Positions 37,339-64,000 are shown, counted from the stretch's first letter. The stretch is 64,000 nucleotides of DNA from Bacteroidales bacterium (GCA_030611105.1 JAUWQL010000002.1:6192-70191); one strand, 5' to 3'. Made by a program: numbers and translations. Notes: generated by a model from the sequence alone, not told the origin.

Positions 37339-37370
37339 AAAAAATCCGAAGTAATTACTTCGGATTTTTT
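37339..37370. terminator. Bidirectional terminator
   Basis: Palindrome ATCCGAAGTAATTACTTCGGAT (37344-37365), flanked by an A-run and a T-run. Confidence 0.65.
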
Positions 37371-38095
37371 AATGTAAAATTCTGGCCTTACTTACTTCCC
37401 TGTCATTTGAATTCTTAATAACGTAATAACTTTCTTTATCATTATCTGCTTTGTGAATTGTGAACGTATCCTTTAAATATAATTCAGAAATAAAATTAAT
37501 TTCGAATTCCGAAATCACACCTTTATTTTCATCTGAAAAACATGAATCTAAAATCCACCGTACATAAGTTGCATTATTTACATGCTTATTTACATCCAAA
37601 TCACTGTAATAAACTTTTCTTCTTTCTAACTCATTAAGCTCACCCTTGAAAACAACTTTTTCAAGTTTTCTCTCAATCGCAGCTTTCGAAATGAAATCCT
37701 CATGAACAAAATTAAAATCCTCAGGTTTTCTAGGACGTTTTGTATCCCTATCAAGAATTAACCACGAGCTTGTAACTCTGCCAACAATCGTCCCTTTACA
37801 ATAAATCTCAAAATCACGAAGTGCAAAAAATCCATCTGCACCTTTTGGCCAGGTTTTAATTTCAATTTCATCTTTCCACTCGGGATATTCGTCCATTTGA
37901 ACTAATACACGCGACAAAACCCAAAATGCATTCTCTTTTTTTTAAAAACTCATAACCAAAATCATTTAACCTTGCATTATCCCATGCGCATTCTTGCAAA
38001 AAATGAAATAGCGCAGGTAAAGTTAATTTACCATTTTGATCTGAATGATATGATTTTATTGAAAAATTGTAATTACCTGATGGATGCTTTAACAT
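37369..38095 (-). pseudogene. Acyl-ACP thioesterase split by a +1 frameshift in an A8 tract (T8 on the plus strand, 37936-37943)
   Basis: ORFs 37868..38095 and 37369..37917 join into ...GYEFLKKENAFWVLSRVLVQMDEYPEWKDEIEIKTW if one A is removed. Confidence 0.8.
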
Positions 38096-38097
38096 AA

Positions 38098-39411
38098 TTA
38101 TCTTTCATTTAACTCGCCAAACTTAGTATTTTTATTTAAAATATACCGAAGTGGTCTTATAATTCTCTCTAGCAATCTGATATCTTCAGTAATTATTTCT
38201 GCTGTGCCTTGCATCTCCTGTTTAAATTCTAAATCTATTCCATAAAAGGTACTTAATCCTTCAGGCAATTCTATTTCGGCTGTATAATAATTATTATTTG
38301 GAGCTAGTGAAATGGATTTTATTATTCCTTTAACCATTCCAAATTCCATATATGGATAATTTGCAAATTGAATATTTACCAATTGACCTTCTTTAACTTT
38401 TCCGGCACCCTGAAACATTAATTGTACTTTACCAATCATTTCGCCCTCATCCTGAGGAATAACTGTCAAAACCGTTTCACCGGATTTTACAGTTTGATTC
38501 TCATTCCAAAACTGATTAAAAGTAACCACTCCATTTGTTGGTGCAATAAGAACATAATGGTGTTTCCATGTATCAATTGCCGAAAGAAGATTTTCATACG
38601 ATTCCCAAATGAGAATAACCTGATCTGAAATTTGCTTTTCTTGTTGTAACTCCAATTCCAGAATACTTTGATTCAATTGTTCAACTTGAATTTCAACATT
38701 TGTGACAGACAAATTGCTTTGTTCTAAATTATACGATTTAGAAAGTAATTCTGACTTTGATTTTTCGAAATCTGATTCTGATAACAAATTCTGTGTGTAT
38801 AAAACAGAATCGCGATTGAACTGTTTCTTTGTTAACTGATATCCTTCCTTTAATATTCCGTTTTGAATCTTATAATTTGCCAGATAAAGGCCATACTTCT
38901 TAAGCTCTTTTTTATACAATTCTATTTTACGTTGATGATAATTTAACTTAATGGTTTTATTGTATTCGTCAACATTTTTAAAAAAATTTGCATAATAAAC
39001 CTGTATTTCACCAAGGATATATGTTTTGTATGATAAATTAATTATTTCTCCTGATTTGAAATTACTTTTAAACTTCTTCAAATTTTTCGCTAAACTCTCA
39101 ACCGATTCATAATTTCCGGGGTTCTCGATTACACCTACAACTTGATTTTTTGAGACTAAATCATTATCTGAAACAAATAAATTTTGAATTTTACCCGTTG
39201 TCTTTGCTAAAACAGGAGCCGGAGGATTTTCAGTGGTTAAAACAATTGGAGCTGAGACAATATCAGGATATTTAAAAAACCAACTACCAACAATAATTAC
39301 AGCTACAACAAAAAACATTATGGTAATTCCCCACCTTACAATCCATTTTGGCGGCCTGCTAAGAATCTCTTGTACTTCATTGCTTCTTAATTCAATTGTA
39401 TCTTCTTTCAT
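38098..39411 (-). CDS. HlyD-family membrane fusion / peptide-export accessory protein
   Basis: N-terminal TM, long coiled coil and C-terminal beta domain. Typical bacteriocin-exporter partner architecture. Confidence 0.8.
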   Translation of the reverse strand: MKEDTIELRSNEVQEILSRPPKWIVRWGITIMFFVVAVIIVGSWFFKYPDIVSAPIVLTTENPPAPVLAKTTGKIQNLFVSDNDLVSKNQVVGVIENPGNYESVESLAKNLKKFKSNFKSGEIINLSYKTYILGEIQVYYANFFKNVDEYNKTIKLNYHQRKIELYKKELKKYGLYLANYKIQNGILKEGYQLTKKQFNRDSVLYTQNLLSESDFEKSKSELLSKSYNLEQSNLSVTNVEIQVEQLNQSILELELQQEKQISDQVILIWESYENLLSAIDTWKHHYVLIAPTNGVVTFNQFWNENQTVKSGETVLTVIPQDEGEMIGKVQLMFQGAGKVKEGQLVNIQFANYPYMEFGMVKGIIKSISLAPNNNYYTAEIELPEGLSTFYGIDLEFKQEMQGTAEIITEDIRLLERIIRPLRYILNKNTKFGELNER

Positions 39412-39434
39412 AATGGAACACTAATAACACAGAT

Positions 39435-39827
39435 TTAACTAATTTTCACTGATTTTTTGTTATTTGTAAAGATCTTCCTCTTAAATTCAGGTTCTTTACC
39501 AAAGTTAAGAAGTAAACCAATTTCTATTGTTGTTGCTTTTAAATAATTGATTAACTGAAACTCATGTTCCTCGCAAATATTTTCAACTACCTTTAATTCC
39601 AGTATTATTCTATTTTCAACAATTATATCGGCAAAATATTCTCCTACAATTATATTATTGTAATTCACCTTAATTGGTTTCTGTTTTTCACATTCTAATC
39701 CTAACTGTTTCAATTCAATTAATAAGGCATTCTCATAGACTTTTTCCAGAAAGCCATAGCCTAAATTATTATAAACATTATAAAATGCTTTAATTATTTT
39801 ATTAGAAAGCTCTTTATGAAGAAACAT
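39435..39827 (-). CDS. GxxExxY protein (PD-(D/E)xK-like family)
   Basis: GYGFLEKVYENAL contains the GxxExxY signature. 130 aa. Confidence 0.8.
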   Translation of the reverse strand: MFLHKELSNKIIKAFYNVYNNLGYGFLEKVYENALLIELKQLGLECEKQKPIKVNYNNIIVGEYFADIIVENRIILELKVVENICEEHEFQLINYLKATTIEIGLLLNFGKEPEFKRKIFTNNKKSVKIS

Positions 39828-39882
39828 AATTTTATATTTTAATTTGCGACAATCTGTTTAATCCGCGTCATCTGCGTTCTAT

Positions 39883-42084
39883 TTAACTACCAAGTTCCAA
39901 CTGATTCTTTACCAACTCATAATACGCACCCTTCTTTTTAGTTAGTTCAGCATGTGTTCCTTTTTCTACTATTTTTCCTTTTTCCAAAACAACAATCTGG
40001 TCGGCATTTTTTACTGTACTTAACCTGTGAGCCACTACAATAACCGTTTTCCCTTTAAAAAACTGATCGAGATTTTCCATTATAATTCGTTCATTATTAG
40101 CATCAAGAGCATTGGTAGCTTCATCGAAGAATATAAACTCGGGATTTTTATAAACAGCCCGCGCGATTAATATTCTCTGCTTTTGACCCTGGCTCATTCC
40201 TACTCCGTTTTGTCCTATTTTTGTATTGTAACCTAACGGCAATGACTCTATAAACTCCTGAATATTTGCAACTTTAACGGCATTTAATAATTTTTCAAGA
40301 TCAGGATATTCATCTGAAACAGCAATGTTATTCGCTATAGAATCTGAAAAGATAAAACCATCTTGCATTACAACGCCACATTTGTCTCGCCACATGCGGT
40401 TACTTACATTATCCAGGTATAGATCACCTAAATTAATTTTACCTTTGGTTGGATTATAGAACCCGAGTAATAATTTAATCAGTGTTGTTTTACCGCTTCC
40501 GCTGGTTCCTACAATTGCCGTTATTTTCTTTTCCGGAATATTCAAATTCACATCGTCTAAAACAAATGGTGAGCGAGGCCCTTCGTATTGAAAAAATAGT
40601 TTATCGATATTTAAATCCCGATGTTCCGGTAAAATACTGATTTTTGGAGTTTCATCAGATTCTTCATTTTCCTTATTATGAATTTCACCTAAACGCTCTA
40701 AACTTATCTTTGCATCCTGGGTCGATTGTAAGAAACTAATCATTTGATTAATCGGACTATTCATCTGTCCAATAATATACTGTACAGCCAGCATCATACC
40801 CAGGGTCATATTACCATCGATAACCGATTTTGCCGCGATAAATGTGATAATTATGTTCTTTACTTCGTTTATTAAAACACCTCCAGCCTGCTGATACTGA
40901 TTTAACGACAAACTTGCCATATTAACTTTAAACAACTTTACTTGGATATTTTCCCATTCCCAGCGTTTTTGTTTTTCGCAGTTATTCAGTTTTATTTCCT
41001 GCATCCCGGTTATAAGCTGAATAACATTACTCTGATTATCGGACATTTGAGCAAATCTACGATTGTCCAAATCTCGTCTCTTTTTCATAAAAAGATATAC
41101 CCAGACTGTATATAGTACACTACCTATAAGAAATATTAAGAAAATATTTACGCTATAAATCAGCAAAACAATTCCAAATATTATCAAATTGATAAAAGAA
41201 AATAAAATATTTAAAGTTGATGATGTTAAAAAGGTTTCGATACGTTTATGATCTCCTATGCGCTGAATCAGGTCCCCAATCATTTTGGTATCAAAAAAAG
41301 AAACCGGTAGTTTCATTAATTTAATCAGGAAATCAGAAATTAAAGAAATATTGATCCGTGTACCCAAATGCAACAATATCCAACTGCGAATAAACTCGAC
41401 AATTGTACGTGAGAATATTAAAACCAGTTGGGCAATAATGATTAATGTAACAAAATCTAAATTCTGTGTATTTATACCTTTATCGACAATACTCTGAGTT
41501 AAAAACGGAAAAATTAATTGTAATAAACTTCCTAATAATAATCCCAGGAATAATTGAGTAATAATCTTTTTAAAAGGACGCAGGTAAGAAAACAAAAACT
41601 TAAAACCCGATTTATTTAATTTTTCATCATCTGCCTTGTAAAAATCAGGTGTGGTTTCAAGCAATAAGCAAAGGCCTTTATCATCTCCTCCTTCTTTTGT
41701 AGATGCCCAACCCGATAAAAACTCTTCTTTGGTAAATTTTATTAATCCACGAGCAGGATCTGAAACATACACAAATATTTTCCCGTTACGCTGTTTCTTT
41801 ATTTTATAAACAACAACAAAATGATTCTGATTCCAATGTGCAACACATGGTAAAGGTGTTTCGTTTAAAAGTTGCTCAAATGTTATCCTTACTCCCATAC
41901 TTCGGAATCCAATTGCTTCGGCAGCATCACTTATCCCAAGCATCGAAACACCTTCGCGGGTAATATAGCTTTTATCTCGTAATGTTTGTAAAGAGTAATT
42001 TTTACCATAATGTTTTGCAATCATCCTGAGGCAGGAAGGGCCGCAATCCATGGCGTCGAGTTGTTTGAAAAAGGGGAAAGGCAT
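39883..42084 (-). CDS. Peptidase C39 domain-containing ABC transporter (double-glycine peptide cleavage/export)
   Basis: ATG at 42084. The N-terminus FFKQLDAMDCGPSCLRMIAKHYG carries the C39 catalytic Cys. Six TM segments. Walker A GTSGSGKTT, signature MSQGQKQR, Walker B FIFFDEAT. Confidence 0.9.
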   Translation of the reverse strand: MPFPFFKQLDAMDCGPSCLRMIAKHYGKNYSLQTLRDKSYITREGVSMLGISDAAEAIGFRSMGVRITFEQLLNETPLPCVAHWNQNHFVVVYKIKKQRNGKIFVYVSDPARGLIKFTKEEFLSGWASTKEGGDDKGLCLLLETTPDFYKADDEKLNKSGFKFLFSYLRPFKKIITQLFLGLLLGSLLQLIFPFLTQSIVDKGINTQNLDFVTLIIIAQLVLIFSRTIVEFIRSWILLHLGTRINISLISDFLIKLMKLPVSFFDTKMIGDLIQRIGDHKRIETFLTSSTLNILFSFINLIIFGIVLLIYSVNIFLIFLIGSVLYTVWVYLFMKKRRDLDNRRFAQMSDNQSNVIQLITGMQEIKLNNCEKQKRWEWENIQVKLFKVNMASLSLNQYQQAGGVLINEVKNIIITFIAAKSVIDGNMTLGMMLAVQYIIGQMNSPINQMISFLQSTQDAKISLERLGEIHNKENEESDETPKISILPEHRDLNIDKLFFQYEGPRSPFVLDDVNLNIPEKKITAIVGTSGSGKTTLIKLLLGFYNPTKGKINLGDLYLDNVSNRMWRDKCGVVMQDGFIFSDSIANNIAVSDEYPDLEKLLNAVKVANIQEFIESLPLGYNTKIGQNGVGMSQGQKQRILIARAVYKNPEFIFFDEATNALDANNERIIMENLDQFFKGKTVIVVAHRLSTVKNADQIVVLEKGKIVEKGTHAELTKKKGAYYELVKNQLELGS

Positions 42085-42145
42085 TTTTTGTTTAAAGATA
42101 ACTATTCTAAAAATTAACAAAAACTTTTTTGCATTATATCAAATA

Positions 42146-42183
42146 GATACCATCTCCAAATATTAACATTCGGAGATGGTATC
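42146..42183 (-). promoter_or_regulatory. Perfect 12-bp intercistronic hairpin between the LytTR gene and the ABC exporter gene
   Basis: GATACCATCTCC (42146-42157) pairs with GGAGATGGTATC (42172-42183), with a 14-nt loop. Confidence 0.5.
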
Positions 42184-42218
42184 ACTGGGGTTAATAACAA
42201 CAAACCTAACTTAATAAT

Positions 42219-42572
42219 TTATACTAACTCTTGAAGATCATACACTTTTTTTAAGCTCGTGAATAATTCATCTTGCTTATTATAGTTTACAAATATTTCC
42301 TTACCGTTTTCTAATACAACTTTTGAGGCATCGGAAGGAAATACTACCTCAACATGACGAAGATTTACCAGGTATCTATTATTAAACCTGAAAAATCCCT
42401 GGTCGAATAATAAATGCTCTATTTCATTTAGGGTTAATAACAACTCGATTTTTTCGTTATTAATTAGCGTAAGTCTTGAACATTGAAGGCTTGTTTCAAT
42501 ATAGAGTATCTGACTACAATCTATTTTCATTTTACCCTTTTCTGTAGGTATATAAATATTATAAGTACTCAT
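42219..42572 (-). CDS. Stand-alone LytTR DNA-binding domain protein (no receiver domain)
   Basis: ILYIETSLQCSRLTL...FFRFNNRYLVNLRHV matches the LytTR pattern. 117 aa. Confidence 0.8.
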   Translation of the reverse strand: MSTYNIYIPTEKGKMKIDCSQILYIETSLQCSRLTLINNEKIELLLTLNEIEHLLFDQGFFRFNNRYLVNLRHVEVVFPSDASKVVLENGKEIFVNYNKQDELFTSLKKVYDLQELV

Positions 42573-42583
42573 AATTTCTTAAT

Positions 42584-43357
42584 TTAAATTATATTAAATC
42601 CTTTATTTCTTTCATGTTTTATTGGAATAACAAAAGAGAATTCCTGATTTTCAGAATCCAGAGTCAGCTCACCTCCCAGCATTGATACTGAACCGGATAG
42701 AACTTTGTAATTAAAATAGTCGAAAGAATTATCTTCATCAATTGAACACAACTGATGTTCGGTTAAAAAATCATTAGTAGATAATTTTTCCTTTGCAGGA
42801 CGAACAAATATATTCAAGTATTTATTCTCAGTTATACGATAACCCAATTCAAATTCTACAACAGGATATTTTACAGATACCAGGTTAATAATTCTTCGTA
42901 AAGCTTTTTTCAGTAACATTGAATCTGTTTCAATTTTCAAATCCTTTACCTTGGTATCCCACACAAGCATCAAATTAATATCGGTATCATTATTTTCAAT
43001 TTTTCGATTGTAAAAATCCTCAGTAAATTCCCATAAAATCTGATTTATATCGTATTTTTTTATTATTAACGAATAGTTGTTCGCCTCAAATTGGGATAAA
43101 TCCATAATATTATCTACAAACTGTAGTAATAAATTACTCCCATTTAAAATACCCCGAATATATTCTTTCTGCTTTTCATCAATTACCTCCCTTAAAACCA
43201 GCAATTTCGAAAAACCCATGATTGAGTTTAGCGGAGTTCGTATACCATGCGAGATATGAGATAAAAAACTAATTTTTTCAGTGTTATATTTTTTCTTATT
43301 TTCTCTCACGATTTTGCCGTTTATGGTTTTTATATTGTTTTTCATAGAATCTCGCAT
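42584..43357 (-). CDS. Cytoplasmic HisKA-domain protein with degenerate ATPase domain (pseudo-histidine kinase / phosphotransfer protein)
   Basis: H-box FLSHISHGIRTPLNSIMGF. No TM segments or sensor domain. In the C-terminal domain I cannot find an N-box Asn, DxGxG or GxGxG boxes. Confidence 0.65.
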   Translation of the reverse strand: MRDSMKNNIKTINGKIVRENKKKYNTEKISFLSHISHGIRTPLNSIMGFSKLLVLREVIDEKQKEYIRGILNGSNLLLQFVDNIMDLSQFEANNYSLIIKKYDINQILWEFTEDFYNRKIENNDTDINLMLVWDTKVKDLKIETDSMLLKKALRRIINLVSVKYPVVEFELGYRITENKYLNIFVRPAKEKLSTNDFLTEHQLCSIDEDNSFDYFNYKVLSGSVSMLGGELTLDSENQEFSFVIPIKHERNKGFNII

Positions 43358-43370
43358 GAATTTCTCTCAG

Positions 43371-44120
43371 TTAATTTTTGAGATCTTTTAATACTTTAGC
43401 TGCCTGTTCCCTGTAATAACTTTCATCTTTTATTATTTCATTTAATACATTTTTGGCCTTAAGGGTATTTTCAGTTTTTAAATAACACATTGCCAAATAC
43501 CATTTTGCCTGCTCAATAAACAAGTTATCATTATGAGAAATAATATTGTTAAATGACTTTGTGGCTTTCTGGTATTTTTCCTCTTCTATGTATGAAATAC
43601 CGGAATATAAGCTAACAGCTATATCATTTTCCCTGGTATCTAGAACTTCTTCGAAAAGAACTAATGCCTGTTCATAGTCTTTTTCTTCGTAGCGTTCGAG
43701 TGCATTTAACAATAATCTGTCTACTTCGGTATTTCCGGAACGATAAGTAACAGTTACATCATAAGGAGCATAATACTTTGCAAAAACTGCACTATTATCC
43801 AAATCGGGTTTTGCTAATCTCTGAACCAATCCTCCTGTTGCAATTAATAAAGCAGCTGAAGCCGCAGCATAGTAGAGTCTGCGTTTAGTAAATACCGGCG
43901 GTATTCTCTTAACCTCAGATTCTTCCGCATACATGTAGTCCATAGTTTCTCTCAGCGCCATTACATCATCTTCGATTATTGAGTTATTGATTTCAATACT
44001 CAGGTTATAATCGCGCTTTATATCGTTGTCGGTTGAAAGTAATTCTTTAAAATTGAATAATGCCTTTCCTGCTAATTCTCCATCGATATATTTTTCAATC
44101 ATTTCAAAGTTTGTATCCAT
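43371..44120 (-). CDS. Single-pass membrane TPR protein with anti-sigma-like N-terminus (paralog of 47544..48290)
   Basis: ATG at 44120 (MDTNFEMIEKYIDGEL...). TM segment LYYAAASAALLIATGGLV. C-terminal TPR-like repeats. Confidence 0.6.
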   Translation of the reverse strand: MDTNFEMIEKYIDGELAGKALFNFKELLSTDNDIKRDYNLSIEINNSIIEDDVMALRETMDYMYAEESEVKRIPPVFTKRRLYYAAASAALLIATGGLVQRLAKPDLDNSAVFAKYYAPYDVTVTYRSGNTEVDRLLLNALERYEEKDYEQALVLFEEVLDTRENDIAVSLYSGISYIEEEKYQKATKSFNNIISHNDNLFIEQAKWYLAMCYLKTENTLKAKNVLNEIIKDESYYREQAAKVLKDLKN

Positions 44121-44160
44121 AGTTTTTAATTTCAAGTTTAACTCCTTACTGTCTTATTTG

Positions 44161-44180
44161 AGACACAATGCATTGCGTCT
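44161..44180 (-). promoter_or_regulatory. 20-nt palindrome/hairpin between the peptide gene and downstream genes
   Basis: AGACACAATGCATTGCGTCT. One mismatch, which becomes a G-U pair in the minus-strand RNA. Confidence 0.4.
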
Positions 44181-44329
44181 TTACCATATCTATTTAACTC
44201 TCCGCCAACTGGCAGATTAGTTCAGGTCTTGTTAGAAAAGACCAACTCAACATTATACTTCGACAGGGCATATACATTGAGTCGGTCAACACTTTAAGAA
44301 CGTATATTTGAATCGAAAGGGAGGGCAAT

Positions 44330-44485
44330 TTAATTTCCGCCGTTTGTTGATGGTGGCCATAAATCTTCATCTTGTTCATCTCCACCTTTTATAATTATCA
44401 TTGCATTTGTATCAAGACTGTTTAAAAAATTGTTCATTGATTTTTTAGTTTCTTTAATTCCAAAAATGTTTTTTAATGTTTTCAT
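44330..44485 (-). CDS. Double-glycine-leader peptide precursor (51 aa), not in the ORF track
   Basis: Minus-strand ATG at 44485. Sequence MKTLKNIFGIKETKKSMNNFLNSLDTNAMIIIKGG / DEQDEDLWPPSTNGGN. The leader fits the L(-15), L(-12), M(-7), I(-4), G(-2)G(-1) spacing of C39-processed peptides. Heads the gene string containing the C39 ABC exporter. Confidence 0.65.
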   Translation of the reverse strand: MKTLKNIFGIKETKKSMNNFLNSLDTNAMIIIKGGDEQDEDLWPPSTNGGN

Positions 44486-44755
44486 AGTTCCTTTTTTTTA
44501 AAATTTAAAATTTATTTAATTTTTATCTTTAATGTCCTCTCACTTATATATTCCGAAAATCACCAAAAGGTGACCCCCTGTTTTCAACTTTTTTTCAACT
44601 TTTTTTATTTTATTTAGATAAGTAACTGATTTGCTGATAATTATTTTTTGCATTTTTTAAAACTTTTTTGCATTTTTATAGTATATATTAATGAAATCTC
44701 TAAAAACTCAAAAAATAATTTTTAGAAATGCCATTAAGTATAGAATAAGAAAATA

Positions 44756-47566
44756 ATGTATTTAAAAAATTTATTTTTCGTATTATTCCTGTTTATTTCG
44801 GTAAATGTACAAGCTGTTAATCAAACCCCTGACAGTCTTGAAAACATTAAAATACTGGAAAAAGCAGAATTATTCTATAACAAAGGTTTAGCATTTGGAA
44901 AAAACGGGAAACTTGATAGTGCCTTATACTATACACAAAATGCAGTTTTATTATATGAAAGTATTCAACAAACAGATAGTACTTTTTTAGCCAATTCATA
45001 CCAAAACCTTGGAATTATAAATAAATTATTGGGGAAATACAATGATGCAATTAACTGTTATAATAAAGCTGAAGAAATATATAAATTAAATTCCAACCTG
45101 TCGTTACTAGCCTATGTTTATGGAAATAAAGCCAACATTTTTTATATACAACAAGATTATTCCAAAGCAAAAGATTTCCACTTCAGGGCAATAAATATAT
45201 TTAATAGGGATTCTTTGAAATATAATAATCAATTGGCATCGACTTATAACAATCTTGGAATTATTTTTAGGAAAAATAATGATTTTGAAAATGCGATTAA
45301 ATATTATACTATCAGTCTAAGGTTAAAAGAAAACAGTAGTTATTTATATATTACAATAGGTAATTTAGCTATTTGTTACGAAAAGATAAATAATTTTAAA
45401 AAAGCAGAAAATTATTATATACAAGCAATTGAAATATCTGAAATTCTATATGGTTTAGAAAATAATAGAGTAGCATTACAGTATATGAATTATGGAGATT
45501 TTATTTCAAAACAATTAAATGATAATGAAAATGCACTTAATTATTTTAATAAAGCGTTAAATATTTATAAGAATAACTTTGGAGAAAATCACCCGGATTT
45601 ATCAATGTGTTACAATAAAGTTGGAGAATTTTATCTAACCAATAACCAAACCGACAGCGCCCTATTCTATTTTCAGAAATCGTTAATTGCCTTATCGCCG
45701 GAATTTAATGATACCAATCTAAATTCGAATCCTGAAATTAACCAGGTTCTCTCTAAAACACATTTATTGAGTTCTCTAAAAAACAAGGCTTATGCTCTTT
45801 CAAGATCGGGAACGCAAAACAAAAATATAAGTAATTATAAACTAAGTTTAGTTACTTACGATCGGGCAACAGAAGCCATTAATCTGATTAGGTCAGGGTA
45901 TTTAAACGAAGAGAGTAAATTATTTCTGGCCGATAATGAGTTTGAGACATTTTCGAATGCTTTACAAACAAGTTACGAATTATATAAATTAACTAATGAA
46001 CAAAAATACCTTGAAAAGGCCTTCAATTATAGTGAAGCCGGTAAATCAGCAATTTTAACTGAAGCTTTAAAAAATACTCATGCCTTAAATATTGGTGGTA
46101 TCCCAGACTCGTTAATCAATAAGGAAAAACAACTTGAAAAATCTATCTGGACTTACGAAGAACTGATATATGAAGAAAATAAGAAAAAGAATCCTGACCA
46201 AAATAAATTAGAATACTGGCATAAATACCTTTTCGAGAAAAAACAAGAATTTAATAAGCTTGCAGTTTATCTTGAAAATAATTTTCAAAAATATCATTCA
46301 TTAAAATATGTACAGAATACATTAAAGATTGAAGATATACAGAAAAAATTAAGCCGAAAAGATTTACTAATAGAGTATTTTTTAACCGATGATAAAATTT
46401 ACACGATTTTAATTGGCAAAACAAAATCAGATATTTTTGAACAAAACATAGATCAGTCATTCCATTATCATCTGGATAACTTATTACAATCTTTATCGAA
46501 CAATAATTTTTCAAATCATGGTTTTGAGGAATTCAAACAATACCAGGAATCATCATTTTTTATTTACAAGCAATTGCTTAAACCAATCGAAAATAGAATA
46601 ATCAATAAAAATTTAATTCTAATTCCTGATGGGAAACTGGCATACTTGCCATTTGAAGTATTAACCACTGAAAATATTTCGTTTAAACGTATAAATTATA
46701 AGGCTTTGCCATATTTATTGTATAGTAATCGTTTTAGCTATTCGTATTCAGCTACATTTTTATTTGAAAATAGTGATGTTACTAAAAGAGCCGATAAAAA
46801 ACTAGGGGCATTTGCTCCAACATATGATAATATTGACGGGTTACAAGGTGAGTTCTCTTCATTTCGTCAGGAATACCGGGAAAGACTATTTCCGTTAAAA
46901 GGCATTAAAGATGAAGTTCAAAAAGTATCAGAACTTATTGATGGTGATCTGTACCTGGATTTTGATGCCAGTGAAAGAACTTTTAAAAAAGTGGCTTCTC
47001 AATATGATATTCTTCATTTGGCTATGCATACTATAATGGATGATCAGAATCCGATGTATTCGAAAATGGCGTTTACGCAAAATGAAGACAGCATTGAAGA
47101 CGGTTTTCTGAACACTTACGAATTATATAATATGAAATTAAATAGCCGTATGGCTGTTTTAAGCTCGTGTAATAGCGGAAGTGGTAAATTACACCGTGGC
47201 GAGGGCGTGATGAGTATGGCCAGAGGTTTTATATATTCAGGTTGTCCTTCGATAATAATGACACTTTGGTCGGTAGAGGACAAATCGGGGGTTAAATTAA
47301 TGACATCTTTTTATGAAAATCTGCTAAAAGGCAAAACAAAATCTGAATCTCTTCAAAAGTCAAAAATAGATTTTATCAATAATGCTGACCAGTTAAAAGC
47401 TCACCCTTACTTTTGGTCGGGTTATGTTGTTATCGGAAATAATAATGCATTATTTACTTCTTATAAAAAGCATTTTATTTATGCCGGAATTATTTTGCTC
47501 CTTTTAACAATCGGAATATTGCTTTTGGTTAAAAACAAGAAAACTAATAAAGAATCTTTAAAATAA
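44756..47566 (+). CDS. Exported TPR-repeat CHAT-domain (caspase-like) protease with C-terminal membrane anchor
   Basis: Signal peptide MYLKNLFFVLFLFISVNVQA. Many TPR units. CHAT His/Cys dyad contexts ILHLAMHT and VLSSCNSGSG. C-terminal TM IYAGIILLLLTIGILLLV. Confidence 0.9.
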   Translation: MYLKNLFFVLFLFISVNVQAVNQTPDSLENIKILEKAELFYNKGLAFGKNGKLDSALYYTQNAVLLYESIQQTDSTFLANSYQNLGIINKLLGKYNDAINCYNKAEEIYKLNSNLSLLAYVYGNKANIFYIQQDYSKAKDFHFRAINIFNRDSLKYNNQLASTYNNLGIIFRKNNDFENAIKYYTISLRLKENSSYLYITIGNLAICYEKINNFKKAENYYIQAIEISEILYGLENNRVALQYMNYGDFISKQLNDNENALNYFNKALNIYKNNFGENHPDLSMCYNKVGEFYLTNNQTDSALFYFQKSLIALSPEFNDTNLNSNPEINQVLSKTHLLSSLKNKAYALSRSGTQNKNISNYKLSLVTYDRATEAINLIRSGYLNEESKLFLADNEFETFSNALQTSYELYKLTNEQKYLEKAFNYSEAGKSAILTEALKNTHALNIGGIPDSLINKEKQLEKSIWTYEELIYEENKKKNPDQNKLEYWHKYLFEKKQEFNKLAVYLENNFQKYHSLKYVQNTLKIEDIQKKLSRKDLLIEYFLTDDKIYTILIGKTKSDIFEQNIDQSFHYHLDNLLQSLSNNNFSNHGFEEFKQYQESSFFIYKQLLKPIENRIINKNLILIPDGKLAYLPFEVLTTENISFKRINYKALPYLLYSNRFSYSYSATFLFENSDVTKRADKKLGAFAPTYDNIDGLQGEFSSFRQEYRERLFPLKGIKDEVQKVSELIDGDLYLDFDASERTFKKVASQYDILHLAMHTIMDDQNPMYSKMAFTQNEDSIEDGFLNTYELYNMKLNSRMAVLSSCNSGSGKLHRGEGVMSMARGFIYSGCPSIIMTLWSVEDKSGVKLMTSFYENLLKGKTKSESLQKSKIDFINNADQLKAHPYFWSGYVVIGNNNALFTSYKKHFIYAGIILLLLTIGILLLVKNKKTNKESLK

Positions 47567-48290
47567 ACTGTGCATCAGATTTCTGTATCATATTTTCTTC
47601 AACTATTTTTTTTAAGATATTTTCAGCACTAATCATTTCATTTTGTTTTAAATAAACAAGTGCCAGATACCAATGAGATTGTTCCCGGAAAATATGATTC
47701 TTTTTTAAAATCAGATCATTTAAATATTTTTCGGCTTCACTCAAATTATTTTTCTCAATTTCGCAAACAGACAAATAAAACTGGCTCATATAATTTGTGC
47801 TATCCTTTTCCAGTACCTGCTTAAAATACACAGAAGCCATTTCGTACTTTCCGTCATCATAATAATTAAATGCATCATATAATATCTTTTCAATTTCAGT
47901 TTGATCTACAGGAGATCTGAAACTCATAACTGCAGGATATGCAGAATAATAGGATTTAAAAACCTCATTCTTATCCATTTGTCCTAATGGGAAAATATAA
48001 ATATTTGCAATTACAACAATTAAAATAATAACAGCGGCAACAGCAGAATATATAAATGGATTTTTAATTTTTTTAGTTAAGGCAGGTTTGGTATTTATTA
48101 TTTCATCTAAATTATTTCTTAAACTTATAATATCATCTTCAATTATGGCTTCGTTAATATCTTTTCTAAGCAAAAATTCTTTCATCAGGTCAGGATTGCT
48201 TCTTAACGATTCTTCAAATTCTACTTGTTCCCTAACCGACATTTCATTCATCAAATATTTTTCTATCAAATCGAATTTATTCTCCATCAC
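47544..48290 (-). CDS. Anti-sigma-like single-pass membrane TPR protein
   Basis: N-terminus LIEKYLMNEMSVREQVEFEESLRSNPDL, a TM segment, then TPR repeats. 4-nt overlap with the upstream sigma gene. Confidence 0.6.
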   Translation of the reverse strand: MMENKFDLIEKYLMNEMSVREQVEFEESLRSNPDLMKEFLLRKDINEAIIEDDIISLRNNLDEIINTKPALTKKIKNPFIYSAVAAVIILIVVIANIYIFPLGQMDKNEVFKSYYSAYPAVMSFRSPVDQTEIEKILYDAFNYYDDGKYEMASVYFKQVLEKDSTNYMSQFYLSVCEIEKNNLSEAEKYLNDLILKKNHIFREQSHWYLALVYLKQNEMISAENILKKIVEENMIQKSDAQFILKILY

Positions 48291-48850
48291 TCATCTTTAT
48301 AATTCGGGTCACTCTTAATATATCGCACAAGTTGTTCTTTACATTTATATTTTTTGCGTTTTATATATATCATGCTATCAATCCCTAACTCTTCAGCTAT
48401 ATCTTTTAAAGGTACTTTTTTTAAAAATAATTTCAATAATTTCCGGCAATCTTTTTCAAGTCTTTTAAAATGTTTTTGATATAATTTATATTGTTCGTTT
48501 TTTTTATATTCATCTATCGTTATGTCAGGAATATTATCGTATTCAATATAAATATTCTGATTTTCGATATTTTCTTTCTGCTTCGATAATTGTTTTATCC
48601 AAATATATCGACAAACAGAGTATATATATGATTTAAACGAAGATGTAAGTTCAAAGTTACCTTCTTTAATTTTTCTATAAATAATTATTATACTGTCCTG
48701 AAATACATCCTTCGCATCCTGTACAGATCCCCTGTTATCTAATACAAATCTTTTTATGGTTGGAAAATATACTAAGTATATGCTTTTTAGAATTTGCTTA
48801 TCTTGTTTACGAATTCCTTCAACTATTATTTTATTATCTATTGATCTCAA
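48287..48850 (-). CDS. Sigma-70 family (ECF-like) sigma factor
   Basis: Region 2-like DVFQDSIIIIYRKI...YIYSVCRYIWIKQ and region 4-like LKDIAEELGIDSMIYIKRKKYKC. Confidence 0.75.
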   Translation of the reverse strand: MRSIDNKIIVEGIRKQDKQILKSIYLVYFPTIKRFVLDNRGSVQDAKDVFQDSIIIIYRKIKEGNFELTSSFKSYIYSVCRYIWIKQLSKQKENIENQNIYIEYDNIPDITIDEYKKNEQYKLYQKHFKRLEKDCRKLLKLFLKKVPLKDIAEELGIDSMIYIKRKKYKCKEQLVRYIKSDPNYKDE

Positions 48851-48963: not shown

Positions 48964-49380
48964 TTAAATAGAATATAAATATTTTACAATTGTTTTATCC
49001 ATGATAACTAAAAGAATAACTCCAAATAAGGCTATTAATAAATAAGGCGATAAACTTAATTCGCTCCAAAATTTCGAAAAGAAATCAGCGAATGCGTTAA
49101 GATATGCCGGTGTTTGAAATCCATCGGAAACCTGAGAAAAATCCAATCCATGCTTTATAAAATAAAAGATAAAAAAACCAACTACCATAATACACATCGA
49201 TATAGCCAGCCAAATATTACTTTGTTTATCGTCATTAGTAATAAAACTAACCTTTATAGCCGGGTCTTTTAATATTCGGCTCATTACATTTTTTGTAAAA
49301 TCCGAACCAGGTTGCTGAACCTCTCCTTTACTAATTAACTTCTTAGTAAATTCATCGGTATTAAATTTATTATTATTCAT
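48964..49380 (-). CDS. Membrane protein, candidate anti-sigma factor
   Basis: Starts 2 nt after the ECF sigma stop. Two or three TM segments. Confidence 0.45.
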   Translation of the reverse strand: MNNNKFNTDEFTKKLISKGEVQQPGSDFTKNVMSRILKDPAIKVSFITNDDKQSNIWLAISMCIMVVGFFIFYFIKHGLDFSQVSDGFQTPAYLNAFADFFSKFWSELSLSPYLLIALFGVILLVIMDKTIVKYLYSI

Positions 49381-49381
49381 A

Positions 49382-49957
49382 TCACAGAATTGTTTTTACT
49401 TCATCTTTTAAAATTGTTTTTAGCTCATCGTAAAATCGCTTTCTTGCCCTATGCAATTTTACCTTTACATTTGAGAGTGTTAGTCCTGTAATTTCGCAAA
49501 TTTCTTCAATTGTATTTTCTTGTAAATAGTATAATGTTATTATTAAAGCATCATCTTCCTTTAACTTTTCAATTGTCTCATTAATGTATTTTTTTTGTTC
49601 ATTTCTGGTTAATTCGTTTATGGCATTATATGCTGAAACCACTTCGCTATCCGGCAATACTGTATCTTCAACATTATATACCTCAATCTGTTTTTTTCTT
49701 AATTTCGAAATTGCTCCATTATACGTTATCCTGTATAACCATGTTGAAAATTTAGATTCAAATTTAAAATCTTTCAACGAATTAAATGCCTTTACAAATG
49801 TATCCTGAGCCAACTCCTCAGCATCTTCCGAATTTTTCAACATTCTTAATGCGATTGTATATACCATACCTTTATATTCATCAACCAGGTATGTAAAAGC
49901 ATTAATATCACCTCTTAAAACGCGTTCGATATAGTATTTGTCTTGTTTCAATCCCAA
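49382..49957 (-). CDS. ECF-type RNA polymerase sigma factor
   Basis: AEELAQDTFVKAF, WLYRITYNGAISKLRK, and region 4 IEEICEITGLTLSNVKVKLHRAR. Confidence 0.85.
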   Translation of the reverse strand: MGLKQDKYYIERVLRGDINAFTYLVDEYKGMVYTIALRMLKNSEDAEELAQDTFVKAFNSLKDFKFESKFSTWLYRITYNGAISKLRKKQIEVYNVEDTVLPDSEVVSAYNAINELTRNEQKKYINETIEKLKEDDALIITLYYLQENTIEEICEITGLTLSNVKVKLHRARKRFYDELKTILKDEVKTIL

Positions 49958-50045: not shown

Positions 50046-50202
50046 ATGAATCCAGTCTAAAAAGTACGAAATATTTTGAAATGCTGAAAATAAGTTTTGC
50101 CCCTGCCCTAAAGGGAGACTGATTTTCAGCTACTTCTCCCTTTAGGGTTTGGGGCTAAAAGTAGTTGAAAATCAAATTTAAACCTTTTTAGACTGGATTC
50201 AT
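50046..50202. repeat. Structured MITE-like / ncRNA-like element bounded by 19-bp inverted repeats
   Basis: ATGAATCCAGTCTAAAAAG (50046-50064) pairs with CTTTTTAGACTGGATTCAT (50184-50202). Inner perfect 13-bp stem CCCTAAAGGGAGA (50106-50118) / TCTCCCTTTAGGG (50135-50147), flanked by GCCCC/GGGGC. Confidence 0.55.
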
Positions 50203-50298
50203 TTATAATTTTAAATTTTAGCTCATTCCTGCCAGCCGGCAGGCTGGTTAGACATTTATAATTTTAGTTCATTCCTGCCAGCCGGCAGGCTGGTTAGG
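50200..50298. repeat. Tandem direct repeat (53 + 46 nt), each unit carrying the GC-rich palindromic motif CCTGCCAGCCGGCAGGCTGG
   Basis: CATTCCTGCCAGCCGGCAGGCTGGTTA at 50224-50250 and 50270-50296. Units start with CATTTATAATTTTA. Confidence 0.7.
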
Positions 50299-50380
50299 CA
50301 TTTTTCACCGTAAAGTGTAACCCAATTTAAAAAGGTAGCGTCATAGCAATAAAACGATGTTAAACTAAAAACAATTTATT

Positions 50381-63218: not shown

Positions 63219-64000
63219 TCATAAATATTTGCTGATCATCGTTAAAATTTTTGGAGCTGAAATAGGCTTTTCAAGTATATCATTAAAAATATTCCTTGTG
63301 GTAAACATAAAATCTGCTGAGGCTAAATAAGCCGATTGTGCAATAACGGGTATATCAGGCAATTGTTTTTTTATTAAACCAGTAGCTTCAACACCATCCA
63401 TTTCAGGCATTTTTATGTCCATTAAAATTAAATCAATTTTATTTTTTTGACAAATATCTACAGCATCTTTACCATCTTTAGCCCGTAAAATTTTAGCTTT
63501 TGTATTTGATAATAGCACTTTAAAATAAGAGAAATTACTATCTTCATCTTCTGCAATAAGAATTGTTTTATCAGGCCAATTATAATTTGCAGTAAAGTCA
63601 GGTTTCTCATCAACCAGCTTTTCTTCTTCTGATATTTTATCACAAGGAACTGTAAAGTAAAATTCAGTACCATTGTTGATTTTTGATTTAAGCCAGATTT
63701 TACCACCGAGTAAATCAACAAGACCCTTGGAAATTGCTAATCCCAGTCCCGCCCCTCTATATAATTTTTTTATATCAGTTTCTATTTTGGTAAATCTTTC
63801 AAATATATTTTTTTGTTGTTCTTCGGATATACCAATACCTGTATCTTTAACAAAAAACTTGACGCAAGGCTGAGCTGATTGATTATCAATATTATATCCG
63901 AATTCGACTGAGCCTTTTTCTGTAAATTTTAAAGCATTATCAATTAAGTTTGATAAAATTTGTTTAATGCGAAACTGATCACAATATATCTTAATATTTA
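63219..64000 (-). CDS. Hybrid sensor histidine kinase, C-terminal part (HATPase_c + receiver); 5' end beyond the right edge
   Basis: The minus-strand frame is open from the window edge: ...FRIKQILSNLIDNALKFTEKG...KDTGIGISEE...GAGLGLAISKGLVDLLGG...TILIAEDEDSNF...LILMDIKMPEMDG. The track reports only the last 99 aa. Confidence 0.8.
   Translation of the reverse strand, partial: NIKIYCDQFRIKQILSNLIDNALKFTEKGSVEFGYNIDNQSAQPCVKFFVKDTGIGISEEQQKNIFERFTKIETDIKKLYRGAGLGLAISKGLVDLLGGKIWLKSKINNGTEFYFTVPCDKISEEEKLVDEKPDFTANYNWPDKTILIAEDEDSNFSYFKVLLSNTKAKILRAKDGKDAVDICQKNKIDLILMDIKMPEMDGVEATGLIKKQLPDIPVIAQSAYLASADFMFTTRNIFNDILEKPISAPKILTMISKYL

Follow-up and report, generated by a model that had tools for sequence, protein, structure and literature searches.

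A conserved double-glycine peptide locus in uncultured Bacteroidales as a candidate secreted-peptide circuit for a RiPP export island

Can a Bacteroidales bacterium govern the export of its antimicrobial peptides through a small peptide that it secretes itself? As far as we know, nearly all documented cases of cell-cell signalling by peptides come from Gram-positive bacteria, and the regulation of the many clusters for bacteriocins and for ribosomally synthesized and post-translationally modified peptides (RiPPs) in Bacteroidota is, as far as we are aware, largely unknown. The locus that raises the question lies in a 64,000-nucleotide stretch of DNA (hereafter the window) from Bacteroidales bacterium (GCA_030611105.1 JAUWQL010000002.1:6192-70191). 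It consists of seven co-oriented minus-strand genes, encoding a double-glycine (GG) leader peptide (pep), a TPR membrane protein (TPR), a soluble HisKA protein, a stand-alone LytTR protein, a C39-ABC exporter, a small GxxExxY protein and an HlyD-family adaptor, with recomputed gaps of 209, 13, 11, 134, 55 and 23 nt (Table 1). An earlier reading, made without database searches (the sequence-only reading), had proposed a peptide-signalling locus here. Its coordinates, gaps and domains were all borne out by recomputation and by Pfam and NCBIfam scans, in which Peptidase_C39, ABC_membrane, HlyD_3, LytTR, HisKA and TPR each found a match; the seven genes are present, but the GxxExxY gene, which entered that reading's count of gaps, was left out of its title. 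The answer proposed here, at slightly less than even confidence, is that the locus is a secreted-peptide autoinduction circuit with novel sensor parts, governing a RiPP/bacteriocin export island. The peptide would be the signal and the TPR protein its putative sensor, and the window would hold the island's regulatory and export chassis, inherited at one chromosomal site in an uncultured Bacteroidales clade, with the cargo absent.

The head of the locus, pep, encodes a 51-aa precursor in which a 35-residue leader ending in IIIKGG directly precedes the predicted mature peptide, the 16-mer DEQDEDLWPPSTNGGN. It is the sole GG-leader open reading frame (ORF) within the window, is matched by no Pfam or NCBIfam model, and is represented among called proteins by 23 clusters of a large protein collection. 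In all related loci that span the site (at least 15: L001, L003, L004, L005, L007, L010/11, L012/13, L014/15, L016-L020, L102, L104, L106/107, L228 and L286), pep lies between the CHAT and TPR genes, so that in position, at least, the small ORF is conserved beside the orthologous loci, a point on which the sequence-only reading had made its proposal depend. Orthologues differ at 116, 77 and 173 first, second and third codon positions, respectively, and this third-position excess indicates that the ORF is coding. Across 27 sequences the leader takes the form ...L(-12)DTNAM(-7)III(-4)KGG, in which L-12 and the GG are invariant and M-7 is nearly so; positions -4, -7 and -12 are hydrophobic, as in double-glycine leaders of the C39 type. 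The leader is better conserved than the core, which runs from an acidic stretch through LWPP or a proline run to a variable tail (the D(D/E)DLWPP type). Tandem copies occur, with two in L010 and L102 and three in L095. As judged from these alignments, pep is a real conserved gene for a predicted double-glycine precursor. The earlier opinion that its mature product, acidic and Cys-free, is ill-suited to be a pore-forming bacteriocin is one we share; known membrane-active bacteriocins are not peptides of this kind, with acidic, Cys-free cores of 16-30 residues. Two other ORFs were set aside: one over pep in an alternative frame (MKIYGH...), which arises from the conserved DDDLWPP codons as a by-product, and one of 37 aa that overlaps the promoter region, a region rich in indels in relatives.

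The surroundings of pep are likewise conserved. Among close relatives (HisKA identity of at least 34%), the order is ECF (extracytoplasmic function) sigma factor, TPR2, CHAT on the opposite strand, pep, TPR, HisKA, one to three LytTR genes and, usually, C39-ABC and HlyD, an arrangement that is maintained down to 34-41% HisKA identity; the nearest named relatives are metagenome-assembled genomes (MAGs) of uncultured Bacteroidales and Marinilabiliales. The genes singled out by the sequence-only reading are thus co-inherited, but the conserved unit also takes in a divergent TPR-CHAT protease and an ECF sigma/anti-sigma pair that it had overlooked. Co-occurrence with the exporter holds for the greater part, since about 12 of the 15 lineages with enough sequence have the exporter downstream of TPR-HisKA-LytTR, but three lack it there. 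Weaker HisKA matches (L008, L009, and most of L021-L094 and L108-L180) were discarded as ordinary histidine kinases or as having no other gene of the locus nearby.

The putative sensor is a single-pass membrane protein with recognizable Pfam TPR matches and more than 120 homologues. Its AlphaFold2 (AF2) model (pLDDT 75) begins with four N-terminal helices, which a membrane segment and then a flexible linker connect to 3.5 TPR repeats, and the best fold matches are peptide-binding modules of three TPRs (SycD, IpgC and SGT), together with CTPR390. Positive residues on the N-terminal side of the transmembrane segment place the TPR domain, by prediction, in the periplasm. The protein is a paralogue of TPR2 (30% identity over the full length, E 5e-41), whose start overlaps the stop of the ECF sigma gene ECF-B in an arrangement of translational coupling, and it is because of this coupling of its paralogue that TPR itself looks anti-sigma-like. 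TPR2 is accordingly best described as a putative anti-sigma factor, going by gene context. The juxtamembrane linker of TPR bears an invariant Arg-Ser pair (VTVTYRSGN) that is common to TPR2, and these are the only invariant residues outside the repeats. ECF-B adjoins TPR2 and CHAT in all close relatives. Immediately upstream of ECF-B lie a second ECF-type sigma gene (191 aa) and a gene for a hydrophobic, membrane-protein-like partner of 138 aa, both also syntenic in all close relatives.

The CHAT protein (936 aa) combines a signal-like N-terminal segment, a long TPR array and a C-terminal membrane anchor. The dyad of His (HLAMHT) and Cys (LSSCNSG), like the hydrophobic anchor at the C-terminus, is found in 13/13 homologues; taken with the signal-like N-terminus, these features lead to the prediction of an active periplasmic protease. 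CHAT adjoins pep in every locus that extends so far. Furthermore, a related combination exists elsewhere. A few kilobases from its own copy of the locus, L005 has a sigma-like protein, a zinc-finger (HxxxCxxC) anti-sigma, a CHAT protein and two GA-leader peptides, and the same sigma/anti-sigma/CHAT operon with one GG peptide is found in an unrelated genomic context in L100; a single-protein CHAT search added only one informative locus. Example cores of these peptides are SEKTSIRATDGTGDSILDPGTTPPPTIQA and SDIKDITDYGNPSTTAPTYDCFNPVPIESWTCKRN. The two operons may represent a broader, as yet undescribed family of peptide modules linked to CHAT. This second association of CHAT with exported small peptides suggests that the link between CHAT, sigma factor and peptide is recurrent, and it is mainly for this reason that CHAT and the ECF pair are given a place in the mechanism proposed below.

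Between the membrane protein and the exporter are the two most unusual parts of the locus. The HisKA protein (257 aa) yields no HATPase_c match in the Pfam scan, and the same is true of its family, in which PF02518 is present in 0/104 clusters, all of about 250 aa, with the named members coming from Bacteroidota MAGs. The H-box (LS..SHGIRTPLN.IMG) is invariant and carries Gly at H+1 in place of the usual acidic residue, and the N, G1 and G2 boxes could not be identified on reading the family alignment. The AF2 model (pLDDT 79) contains a dimerization and histidine phosphotransfer (DHp) hairpin and a domain resembling the catalytic and ATP-binding (CA) fold; the closest solved fold is the RetS kinase region (E 1e-12), followed by GacS and, lower down, DivL. 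Neither the sequence nor the model has a hydrophobic segment, so that this is not a polytopic membrane kinase. The LytTR protein (117 aa) matches the LytTR domains of AgrA and 3d6w and lacks a receiver domain; none is encoded near the locus, and the window's sole receiver belongs to a distant hybrid kinase. The non-canonical character ascribed to these parts (no receiver, no membrane kinase, a degenerate ATPase domain) was thus confirmed by Pfam scans and by reading of the alignments. Relatives possess one to three tandem LytTR genes. A 17-bp perfect hairpin follows the LytTR gene at the point where relatives hold the additional LytTR genes and the cargo cassette, with equivalents in L003, L004 and L006.

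Three distant loci, in which TPR is only 35-41% identical, help to define what is essential. All three have CHAT and the TPR protein. L095 has three tandem peptides with a soluble, catalytically intact 280-aa HisKA + HATPase_c kinase, L097 one peptide with a similar kinase of 274 aa, neither with a LytTR gene or exporter nearby, and L096 one peptide with a 249-aa HisKA-only protein and a 117-aa protein that is LytTR-like by eye, with no Pfam match recorded. The invariant core therefore comprises CHAT, the GG peptide, the TPR membrane protein and a soluble kinase or kinase-like protein. The pairing of CHAT, peptide and TPR with a HATPase_c-bearing soluble kinase in L095 and L097 implies that TPR and the kinase are a functional pair; the window's clade appears to have lost the kinase chemistry and to use receiver-less LytTR proteins.

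The export side of the locus looks complete. The exporter begins at an ATG that matches its orthologues, is 87-96% identical to its relatives, and retains, on reading of the sequence, the catalytic Cys (DCGPSC) and His (NHFVVVY) of the C39 peptidase; the HlyD gene follows the ABC gene in relatives too. The sequence-only reading had remarked on the lack of any modification enzyme and of any immunity gene. That is true of the window but not of its relatives, in which interchangeable RiPP/bacteriocin cassettes, confirmed with hidden Markov models, are inserted between LytTR and the exporter. L002 and L012 carry a GG-Bacteroidales radical SAM system (TIGR04148, 362.7 bits; TIGR04150; a TIGR04149 precursor); L003 and L010 carry several Cys-rich GG peptides and a VKOR-type protein, to which L003 adds a radical SAM/SPASM enzyme and a CPBP protease; and L007 has a class I lanthipeptide set (a LanC-like cyclase, TIGR03891, and a 743-aa protein read as the dehydratase). 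The window, L004, L006, L016, L017, L019 and L020 have no cassette. Such swappable cargo strengthens the analogy with bacteriocin circuits.

Further features were observed in and around the cargo. Upstream of each Cys-rich cargo peptide gene is a highly conserved sequence, AACCGAAACCTTGACGGTTTTAAAATGCTCAAGG, with two overlapping inverted repeats, which is common to loci with regulators of only about 40% identity and could be a promoter/operator or a structure in the 5' untranslated region. A perfect palindrome, CCTAAATTAGG, or a close variant, lies about 30 nt before the ABC start in L003, L004, L007, L016 and L017, and not in the window; it may be an operator. The GxxExxY gene is probably a passenger. 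It is missing at that position in L004, a 23S_rRNA_IVP/bAvd-type gene stands in its place in L010, and a similar-looking 124-aa gene, identified by eye only, follows the exporter in L003. Different small passenger genes thus occupy the exporter-HlyD slot, or the position just after it, in different genomes (also L020), and the slot looks like a hot spot for small, possibly selfish genes.

The expression signals around pep set it apart from the genes on either side. About 60-110 nt upstream is a promoter-like element (AGGGGGTCACCTTTT-N6-TTYCGGAATA) that occurs once in the window, never in shuffled sequence, and in one copy in the locus of each close relative; it is unlike the Bacteroidota sigma-A consensus. 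In a set of 185,579 genomes the loose motif has 116 matches, against about 140 expected by chance by our estimate, but the extended motif, which includes a downstream ATARKTG, has 13, of which eight are pep promoters and five are other loci, with three of the matches within one MAG. In sister genomes the motif of the pep promoter (GGGGGTCACCTTTT...YCGGAAT.ATAGGTG) is thus also placed ahead of other genes. It precedes, in two genomes, an EEP-family nuclease/amidohydrolase operon beside a BT4734-like/primase gene; the remaining sites precede an operon headed by a 320-aa hydrophobic protein and a gene for a 79-aa Cys-containing protein, and one is cut off. Such a distribution is the signature of a small regulon under a dedicated sigma factor or activator. 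These genes and pep may together form the regulon of one dedicated sigma factor, for which the adjacent ECF sigma is the obvious candidate.

Downstream, the pep stop codon is directly followed by a 32-nt element, CCCTTTCGATTCAAATATACGTTCTTAAAGTG, which is identical in the window, L003, L004, L005, L007 and L016 and, save for a single substitution and a single deletion, in L001 also, with HisKA identity in the most diverged of the loci that share it standing at 61-72%. It has no Rfam match and no obvious promoter or repeat character. An intrinsic terminator or attenuator hairpin with a T-tract comes next and is predicted in all loci, in three compensatory stem variants: GGCCAAY/RTTGGCC, GACCGAC/GTTGGTC (window) and GATCAAC/GTTGATC (L016). 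The notion of a known RNA family in the pep region was abandoned, as Rfam gave nothing relevant and RNAalifold of the whole transcript supported the terminator only. Because of this covarying hairpin, which is leaky-looking, the pep transcript is probably short and abundant, with transcription in part continuing into TPR-HisKA-LytTR.

From these parts, a provisional mechanism can be assembled. The exporter would cut pep after the GG and secrete an acidic peptide of the D(D/E)DLWPP type, which would accumulate with cell density. The peptide might then be read in the periplasm by the TPR array of CHAT, by the periplasmic domains of TPR and its paralogue TPR2, or by both. TPR and TPR2 would next be inactivated, for which the candidate step is cleavage by CHAT at the invariant Arg-Ser linker, in the manner of regulated anti-sigma proteolysis. 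TPR2 would thereby free the ECF sigma factor, the best candidate driver of the pep promoter motif, to give positive feedback. TPR could act through the kinase-dead HisKA protein as an adaptor, by protein-protein contact and with no phosphotransfer, and the LytTR regulator or regulators thus freed would turn on the cargo and exporter genes. There are precedents for both branches: LytTR-only regulators under membrane inhibitors control bacteriocin genes (PMC6193735), and an ECF sigma factor is controlled by a periplasmic TPR-CHAT domain (PMC11506125). The boldest form of this scheme is that the locus is the first peptide-pheromone (quorum-sensing) system of Bacteroidota, with CHAT reading the GG peptide and cleaving the two TPR proteins, and with ECF and pseudo-kinase/LytTR outputs running in parallel. 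We regard this form as doubtful; if true, the LytTR branch would be independent of phosphorylation and would control swappable RiPP cassettes, a new signal-transduction architecture.

Several observations weigh against the proposed autoinduction circuit. The exporter is not adjacent in L005, L014/15 and L104, and LytTR is absent in L095 and L097. The flanking housekeeping genes (M64 peptidase, DUF6249, thioesterase and DUF3127) are also syntenic, so the conserved adjacency is in part vertical inheritance and counts for less as evidence. The periplasmic TPR domain has a net charge of -8 and the pep core one of -5, which argues against simple direct binding; an electrostatic fit between the two was rejected on this ground. 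The core motif is fairly conserved and not diversified, unlike that of many pheromone systems. Neither ECF-B nor ECF-A is preceded by the pep promoter motif in the window, and autoregulation of the ECF genes through it was discarded for that reason. No convincing direct repeats of the LytTR type were seen upstream of pep, cargo or exporter on reading several loci, without formal motif discovery. Finally, ABC/HlyD export in a diderm usually delivers its substrate outside the cell, and sensing of the 16-mer would then require it to return to the periplasm.

The alternative that fares best assigns the peptide to a module of CHAT and the ECF sigma/anti-sigma pair, as protease substrate, activator or regulated product, and leaves HisKA, LytTR and the exporter as syntenic neighbours or as a separate output. 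CHAT adjoins pep wherever the locus reaches, even in loci devoid of LytTR or exporter, independent operons of sigma, anti-sigma, CHAT and GG- or GA-leader peptide exist in L005 and, in another context, L100, the pep promoter motif resembles a dedicated sigma regulon, and TPR-CHAT control over an ECF sigma factor has a precedent in DdvA/DdvS. However, pep is co-oriented with TPR-HisKA-LytTR, from which only the attenuator-like hairpin separates it, whereas CHAT is divergent; a GG leader calls for a C39 exporter, and in most lineages one lies downstream; and TPR and the kinase or kinase-like protein are partners of pep as invariant as CHAT is. This assignment seems unlikely, and it overlaps the autoinduction circuit without excluding it.

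It is distinctly unlikely that pep is simply an exported product, either an anionic extracellular peptide or a minor bacteriocin-like cargo, with regulators that answer envelope stress or competitor peptides. The standard C39-type leader, like that of the cargo peptides, the conserved and undiversified core motif, and the shared acidity of peptide and TPR domain would all fit such a role. Yet pep is retained in loci that lack cargo and in loci that lack an exporter, and it heads the sensor genes, apart from the cargo, with a different type of leader, its own promoter motif and its own terminator. Its Cys-free, acidic make-up and its 16-30 residues are also unlike those of known membrane-active bacteriocins.

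A third alternative is an export checkpoint of the FlgM type, in which unprocessed pep would block HisKA, LytTR or the cytoplasmic domain of TPR until export relieved the block, thus reporting exporter activity and not cell density. It has the attraction of requiring no route of re-entry into the periplasm, no ligand is evident for either the soluble pseudo-kinase or the LytTR protein, and the 35-residue leader is indeed more conserved than the core. Recognition by the C39 domain already accounts for the latter, though, while the periplasmic TPR domains and the CHAT protease would be left without a role and the peptide is kept in lineages with no adjacent exporter, so that we judge such a checkpoint to be quite improbable. 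Lastly, that the genes form no functional unit and are adjacent through vertical inheritance and synteny alone, as the conserved order of the housekeeping flanks could suggest, is highly improbable in view of their short gaps and co-orientation, the persistence of the CHAT, peptide, TPR and kinase set where the flanks differ (L095, L096), the insertion of cargo cassettes precisely between regulators and exporter, and the paralogous sigma/anti-sigma/CHAT/peptide operon at an unrelated site.

Table 1. Features of the window and of related loci (positions counted within the window or the locus named).
Feature	Locus	Position	Strand	Evidence or description
Palindromic repeats and segment with inverted-repeat ends	window	~50050-50310		upstream of sigma gene 49382-49957
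Second ECF-type sigma and 138-aa partner	window	48964-49957	-	upstream of ECF-B
ECF-B, ECF-type sigma	window	48287-48850	-	TIGR02937 1.9e-15, Sigma70_r2
TPR2, anti-sigma-like single-pass membrane protein	window	47544-48290	-	TPR_19/TPR_2 matches; predicted periplasmic TPR domain
TPR-CHAT caspase-like protease	window	44756-47566	+	CHAT 2.1e-53, TPR_12 5e-39; divergent from pep
37-aa ORF (rejected)	window	44540-44653		overlaps promoter region
Promoter-like element of pep	window	44549-44579	-	AGGGGGTCACCTTTT-N6-TTYCGGAATA
pep, GG-leader precursor	window	44330-44485	-	51 aa
32-nt element	window	44290-44321	-	CCCTTTCGATTCAAATATACGTTCTTAAAGTG; after pep stop codon, upstream of terminator hairpin
Terminator/attenuator hairpin and T-tract	window	44236-44287	-	between pep and TPR
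TPR, single-pass membrane protein	window	43371-44120	-	anti-sigma-like cytoplasmic helical domain; predicted periplasmic 3.5-repeat TPR domain
HisKA pseudo-kinase, soluble	window	42584-43357	-	HisKA 2.5e-15; degenerate catalytic domain
LytTR protein, stand-alone DNA-binding	window	42219-42572	-	LytTR 1.3e-12
17-bp perfect hairpin	window	42146-42183	-	terminator-like scan
C39-ABC exporter	window	39883-42084	-	Peptidase_C39 1.6e-33, ABC_membrane, ABC_tran, TIGR01193 2.8e-131, TIGR03796 3.1e-135; ATG at 42084
GxxExxY / PD-(D/E)XK_3 small gene	window	39435-39827	-	TIGR04256 2.5e-40; between exporter and adaptor
HlyD-family periplasmic adaptor	window	38098-39411	-	HlyD_3 1.5e-9, TIGR01843 4.7e-24
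Acyl-ACP thioesterase, split	window	37369-38095	-	A8 run near 37936-37943
Hybrid kinase	window	63222-64000		sole receiver domain of the window
CHAT-linked peptide operon	L005	13489-18632	-	sigma-like, zinc-finger anti-sigma, CHAT, two GA-leader peptides
CHAT-linked peptide operon	L100	3304-8256	+	same operon, one GG peptide
23S_rRNA_IVP/bAvd-type gene	L010	18726-19097		in place of GxxExxY
124-aa gene after exporter	L003	20344-20718		by eye only
Small passenger gene	L020	15497-15811		exporter-HlyD slot or just after
AACCGAAACCTTGACGGTTTTAAAATGCTCAAGG sites	L003	13930-14010, 14270-14300, 14650-14700		upstream of Cys-rich cargo peptide genes
AACCGAAACCTTGACGGTTTTAAAATGCTCAAGG sites	L010	13580-13630 and others		upstream of Cys-rich cargo peptide genes
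Non-pep motif site	L207	2611-2639		
Non-pep motif site	L244	2247-2275		
Non-pep motif site	L282	~3913		
Non-pep motif site	L264			
Non-pep motif site	L194			

Beyond the locus itself, a few observations concern the rest of the window. In L004, L006, L016 and L017 the acyl-ACP thioesterase is encoded by a single ORF of 244-256 aa, but the gene downstream of HlyD in the window is split into two overlapping ORFs because an A8 run contains one A too many; the split reflects either an error in the assembly or a recent pseudogene. Upstream of the second sigma gene are two palindromic repeats of about 32 nt (t.cctaaccagcctgccggctggcaggaatga), followed by a segment of about 150 nt with inverted-repeat ends (ccagtctaaaaag ... 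ctttttagactgg); these look like REP (repetitive extragenic palindromic) or MITE (miniature inverted-repeat transposable element) elements. A defence island was also considered and rejected, PADLOC having returned only generic ABC ATPase similarity and no defence proteins.

If the autoinduction circuit is real, it would explain the timing of antimicrobial-peptide production in uncultured Bacteroidales and why cassettes swap at a fixed, regulated site, and it would mean that a single pathway can be wired from anti-sigma-like proteins, a protease of the caspase type, a dead kinase and a LytTR domain on its own. The locus is a compact, conserved candidate, with one peptide, one exporter and a few unusual transducers, and the peptide, the promoter motif and the candidate cleavage site are all short enough for synthesis and heterologous reconstitution. 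The sequence-only reading knew of no characterised system of this composition in Bacteroidota, and none is described in the full-text literature that we searched.

Individual parts of the locus can nonetheless be compared with known systems. The use of a TPR-type domain as the candidate site for a short secreted peptide recalls the RRNPP receptors (PlcR, PrgX, Rap, NprR and Rgg). Those receptors, however, are cytoplasmic, receive their peptides by import through the oligopeptide permease (Opp) and are mostly DNA-binding, whereas the TPR domain here is predicted to be periplasmic and belongs to a single-pass membrane protein; Opp genes were not noticed at the locus. The HisKA protein resembles RetS and DivL in its predicted fold, a DHp hairpin with a CA-like domain, and in the apparent loss of the ATP-binding motifs. 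Signalling by kinases of the RetS/DivL type is attributed to contacts with other proteins, not to autophosphorylation. In the family described here the phospho-acceptor His and RTPLN are invariant, but the residue after the His is Gly; unlike RetS and DivL, moreover, the protein is small and soluble, has no sensor or receiver domains, and has no partner kinase in the locus.

The parallel first drawn by the sequence-only reading, with the ComC-ComAB-ComDE and BlpC-BlpAB-BlpHR circuits, stands in respect of the peptide, the exporter, the LytTR output and the cargo of relatives, but fails in respect of the membrane kinase and the receiver, which are absent. In both, a GG-peptide gene lies beside sensor and regulator genes, a C39-ABC exporter is accompanied by an accessory protein, the output domain is LytTR, and bacteriocin cargo varies within the locus, to the point that cargo-less, 'cheater-like' versions occur. 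The streptococcal blp and com loci likewise present a fixed frame of regulator and exporter around a swappable cargo slot. The differences lie in the transducers: there is no HPK10-type membrane kinase here, the kinase-like protein being soluble and ATPase-dead; LytTR direct repeats were not found in the regions read by eye; the diderm host is served by an HlyD adaptor; and TPR-CHAT, the anti-sigma-like TPR proteins and the ECF sigma factor are additional.

For the LytTR branch, a known counterpart is HdrRM/BrsRM of Streptococcus mutans, in which a stand-alone LytTR protein is co-transcribed with a membrane protein that inhibits it, bacteriocin genes are under control, and the logic is close to that of sigma and anti-sigma factors (PMC6193735). 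TPR, which shares an operon with LytTR here, could likewise be an inhibitor. The membrane protein here, by comparison, is a single-pass TPR protein homologous to an anti-sigma-like one and not of the HdrM/BrsM type (a Pfam scan detected no similarity to the HdrM-type domain, DUF2154), and a HisKA pseudo-kinase stands between it and LytTR. The 9-bp/12-bp direct repeats that define autoregulation in HdrRM/BrsRM were not seen here by reading.

For the CHAT branch, a looser likeness exists to the TPR-CHAT protease Csx29 (PMC10028731). The nearest counterpart is DdvS/DdvA of Myxococcus xanthus, which likewise unites an ECF sigma factor, a single-pass anti-sigma factor and a periplasmic TPR-CHAT domain, with proteolysis as the proposed trigger (PMC11506125). 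In DdvA, the CHAT domain is fused to the anti-sigma factor and its active site is incomplete, whereas the CHAT protein here is separate, anchored and furnished with a full His-Cys dyad. The outputs differ as well: that of DdvS/DdvA is a phage-defence island, and that of the locus described here would be an island for the export of peptides and RiPPs.

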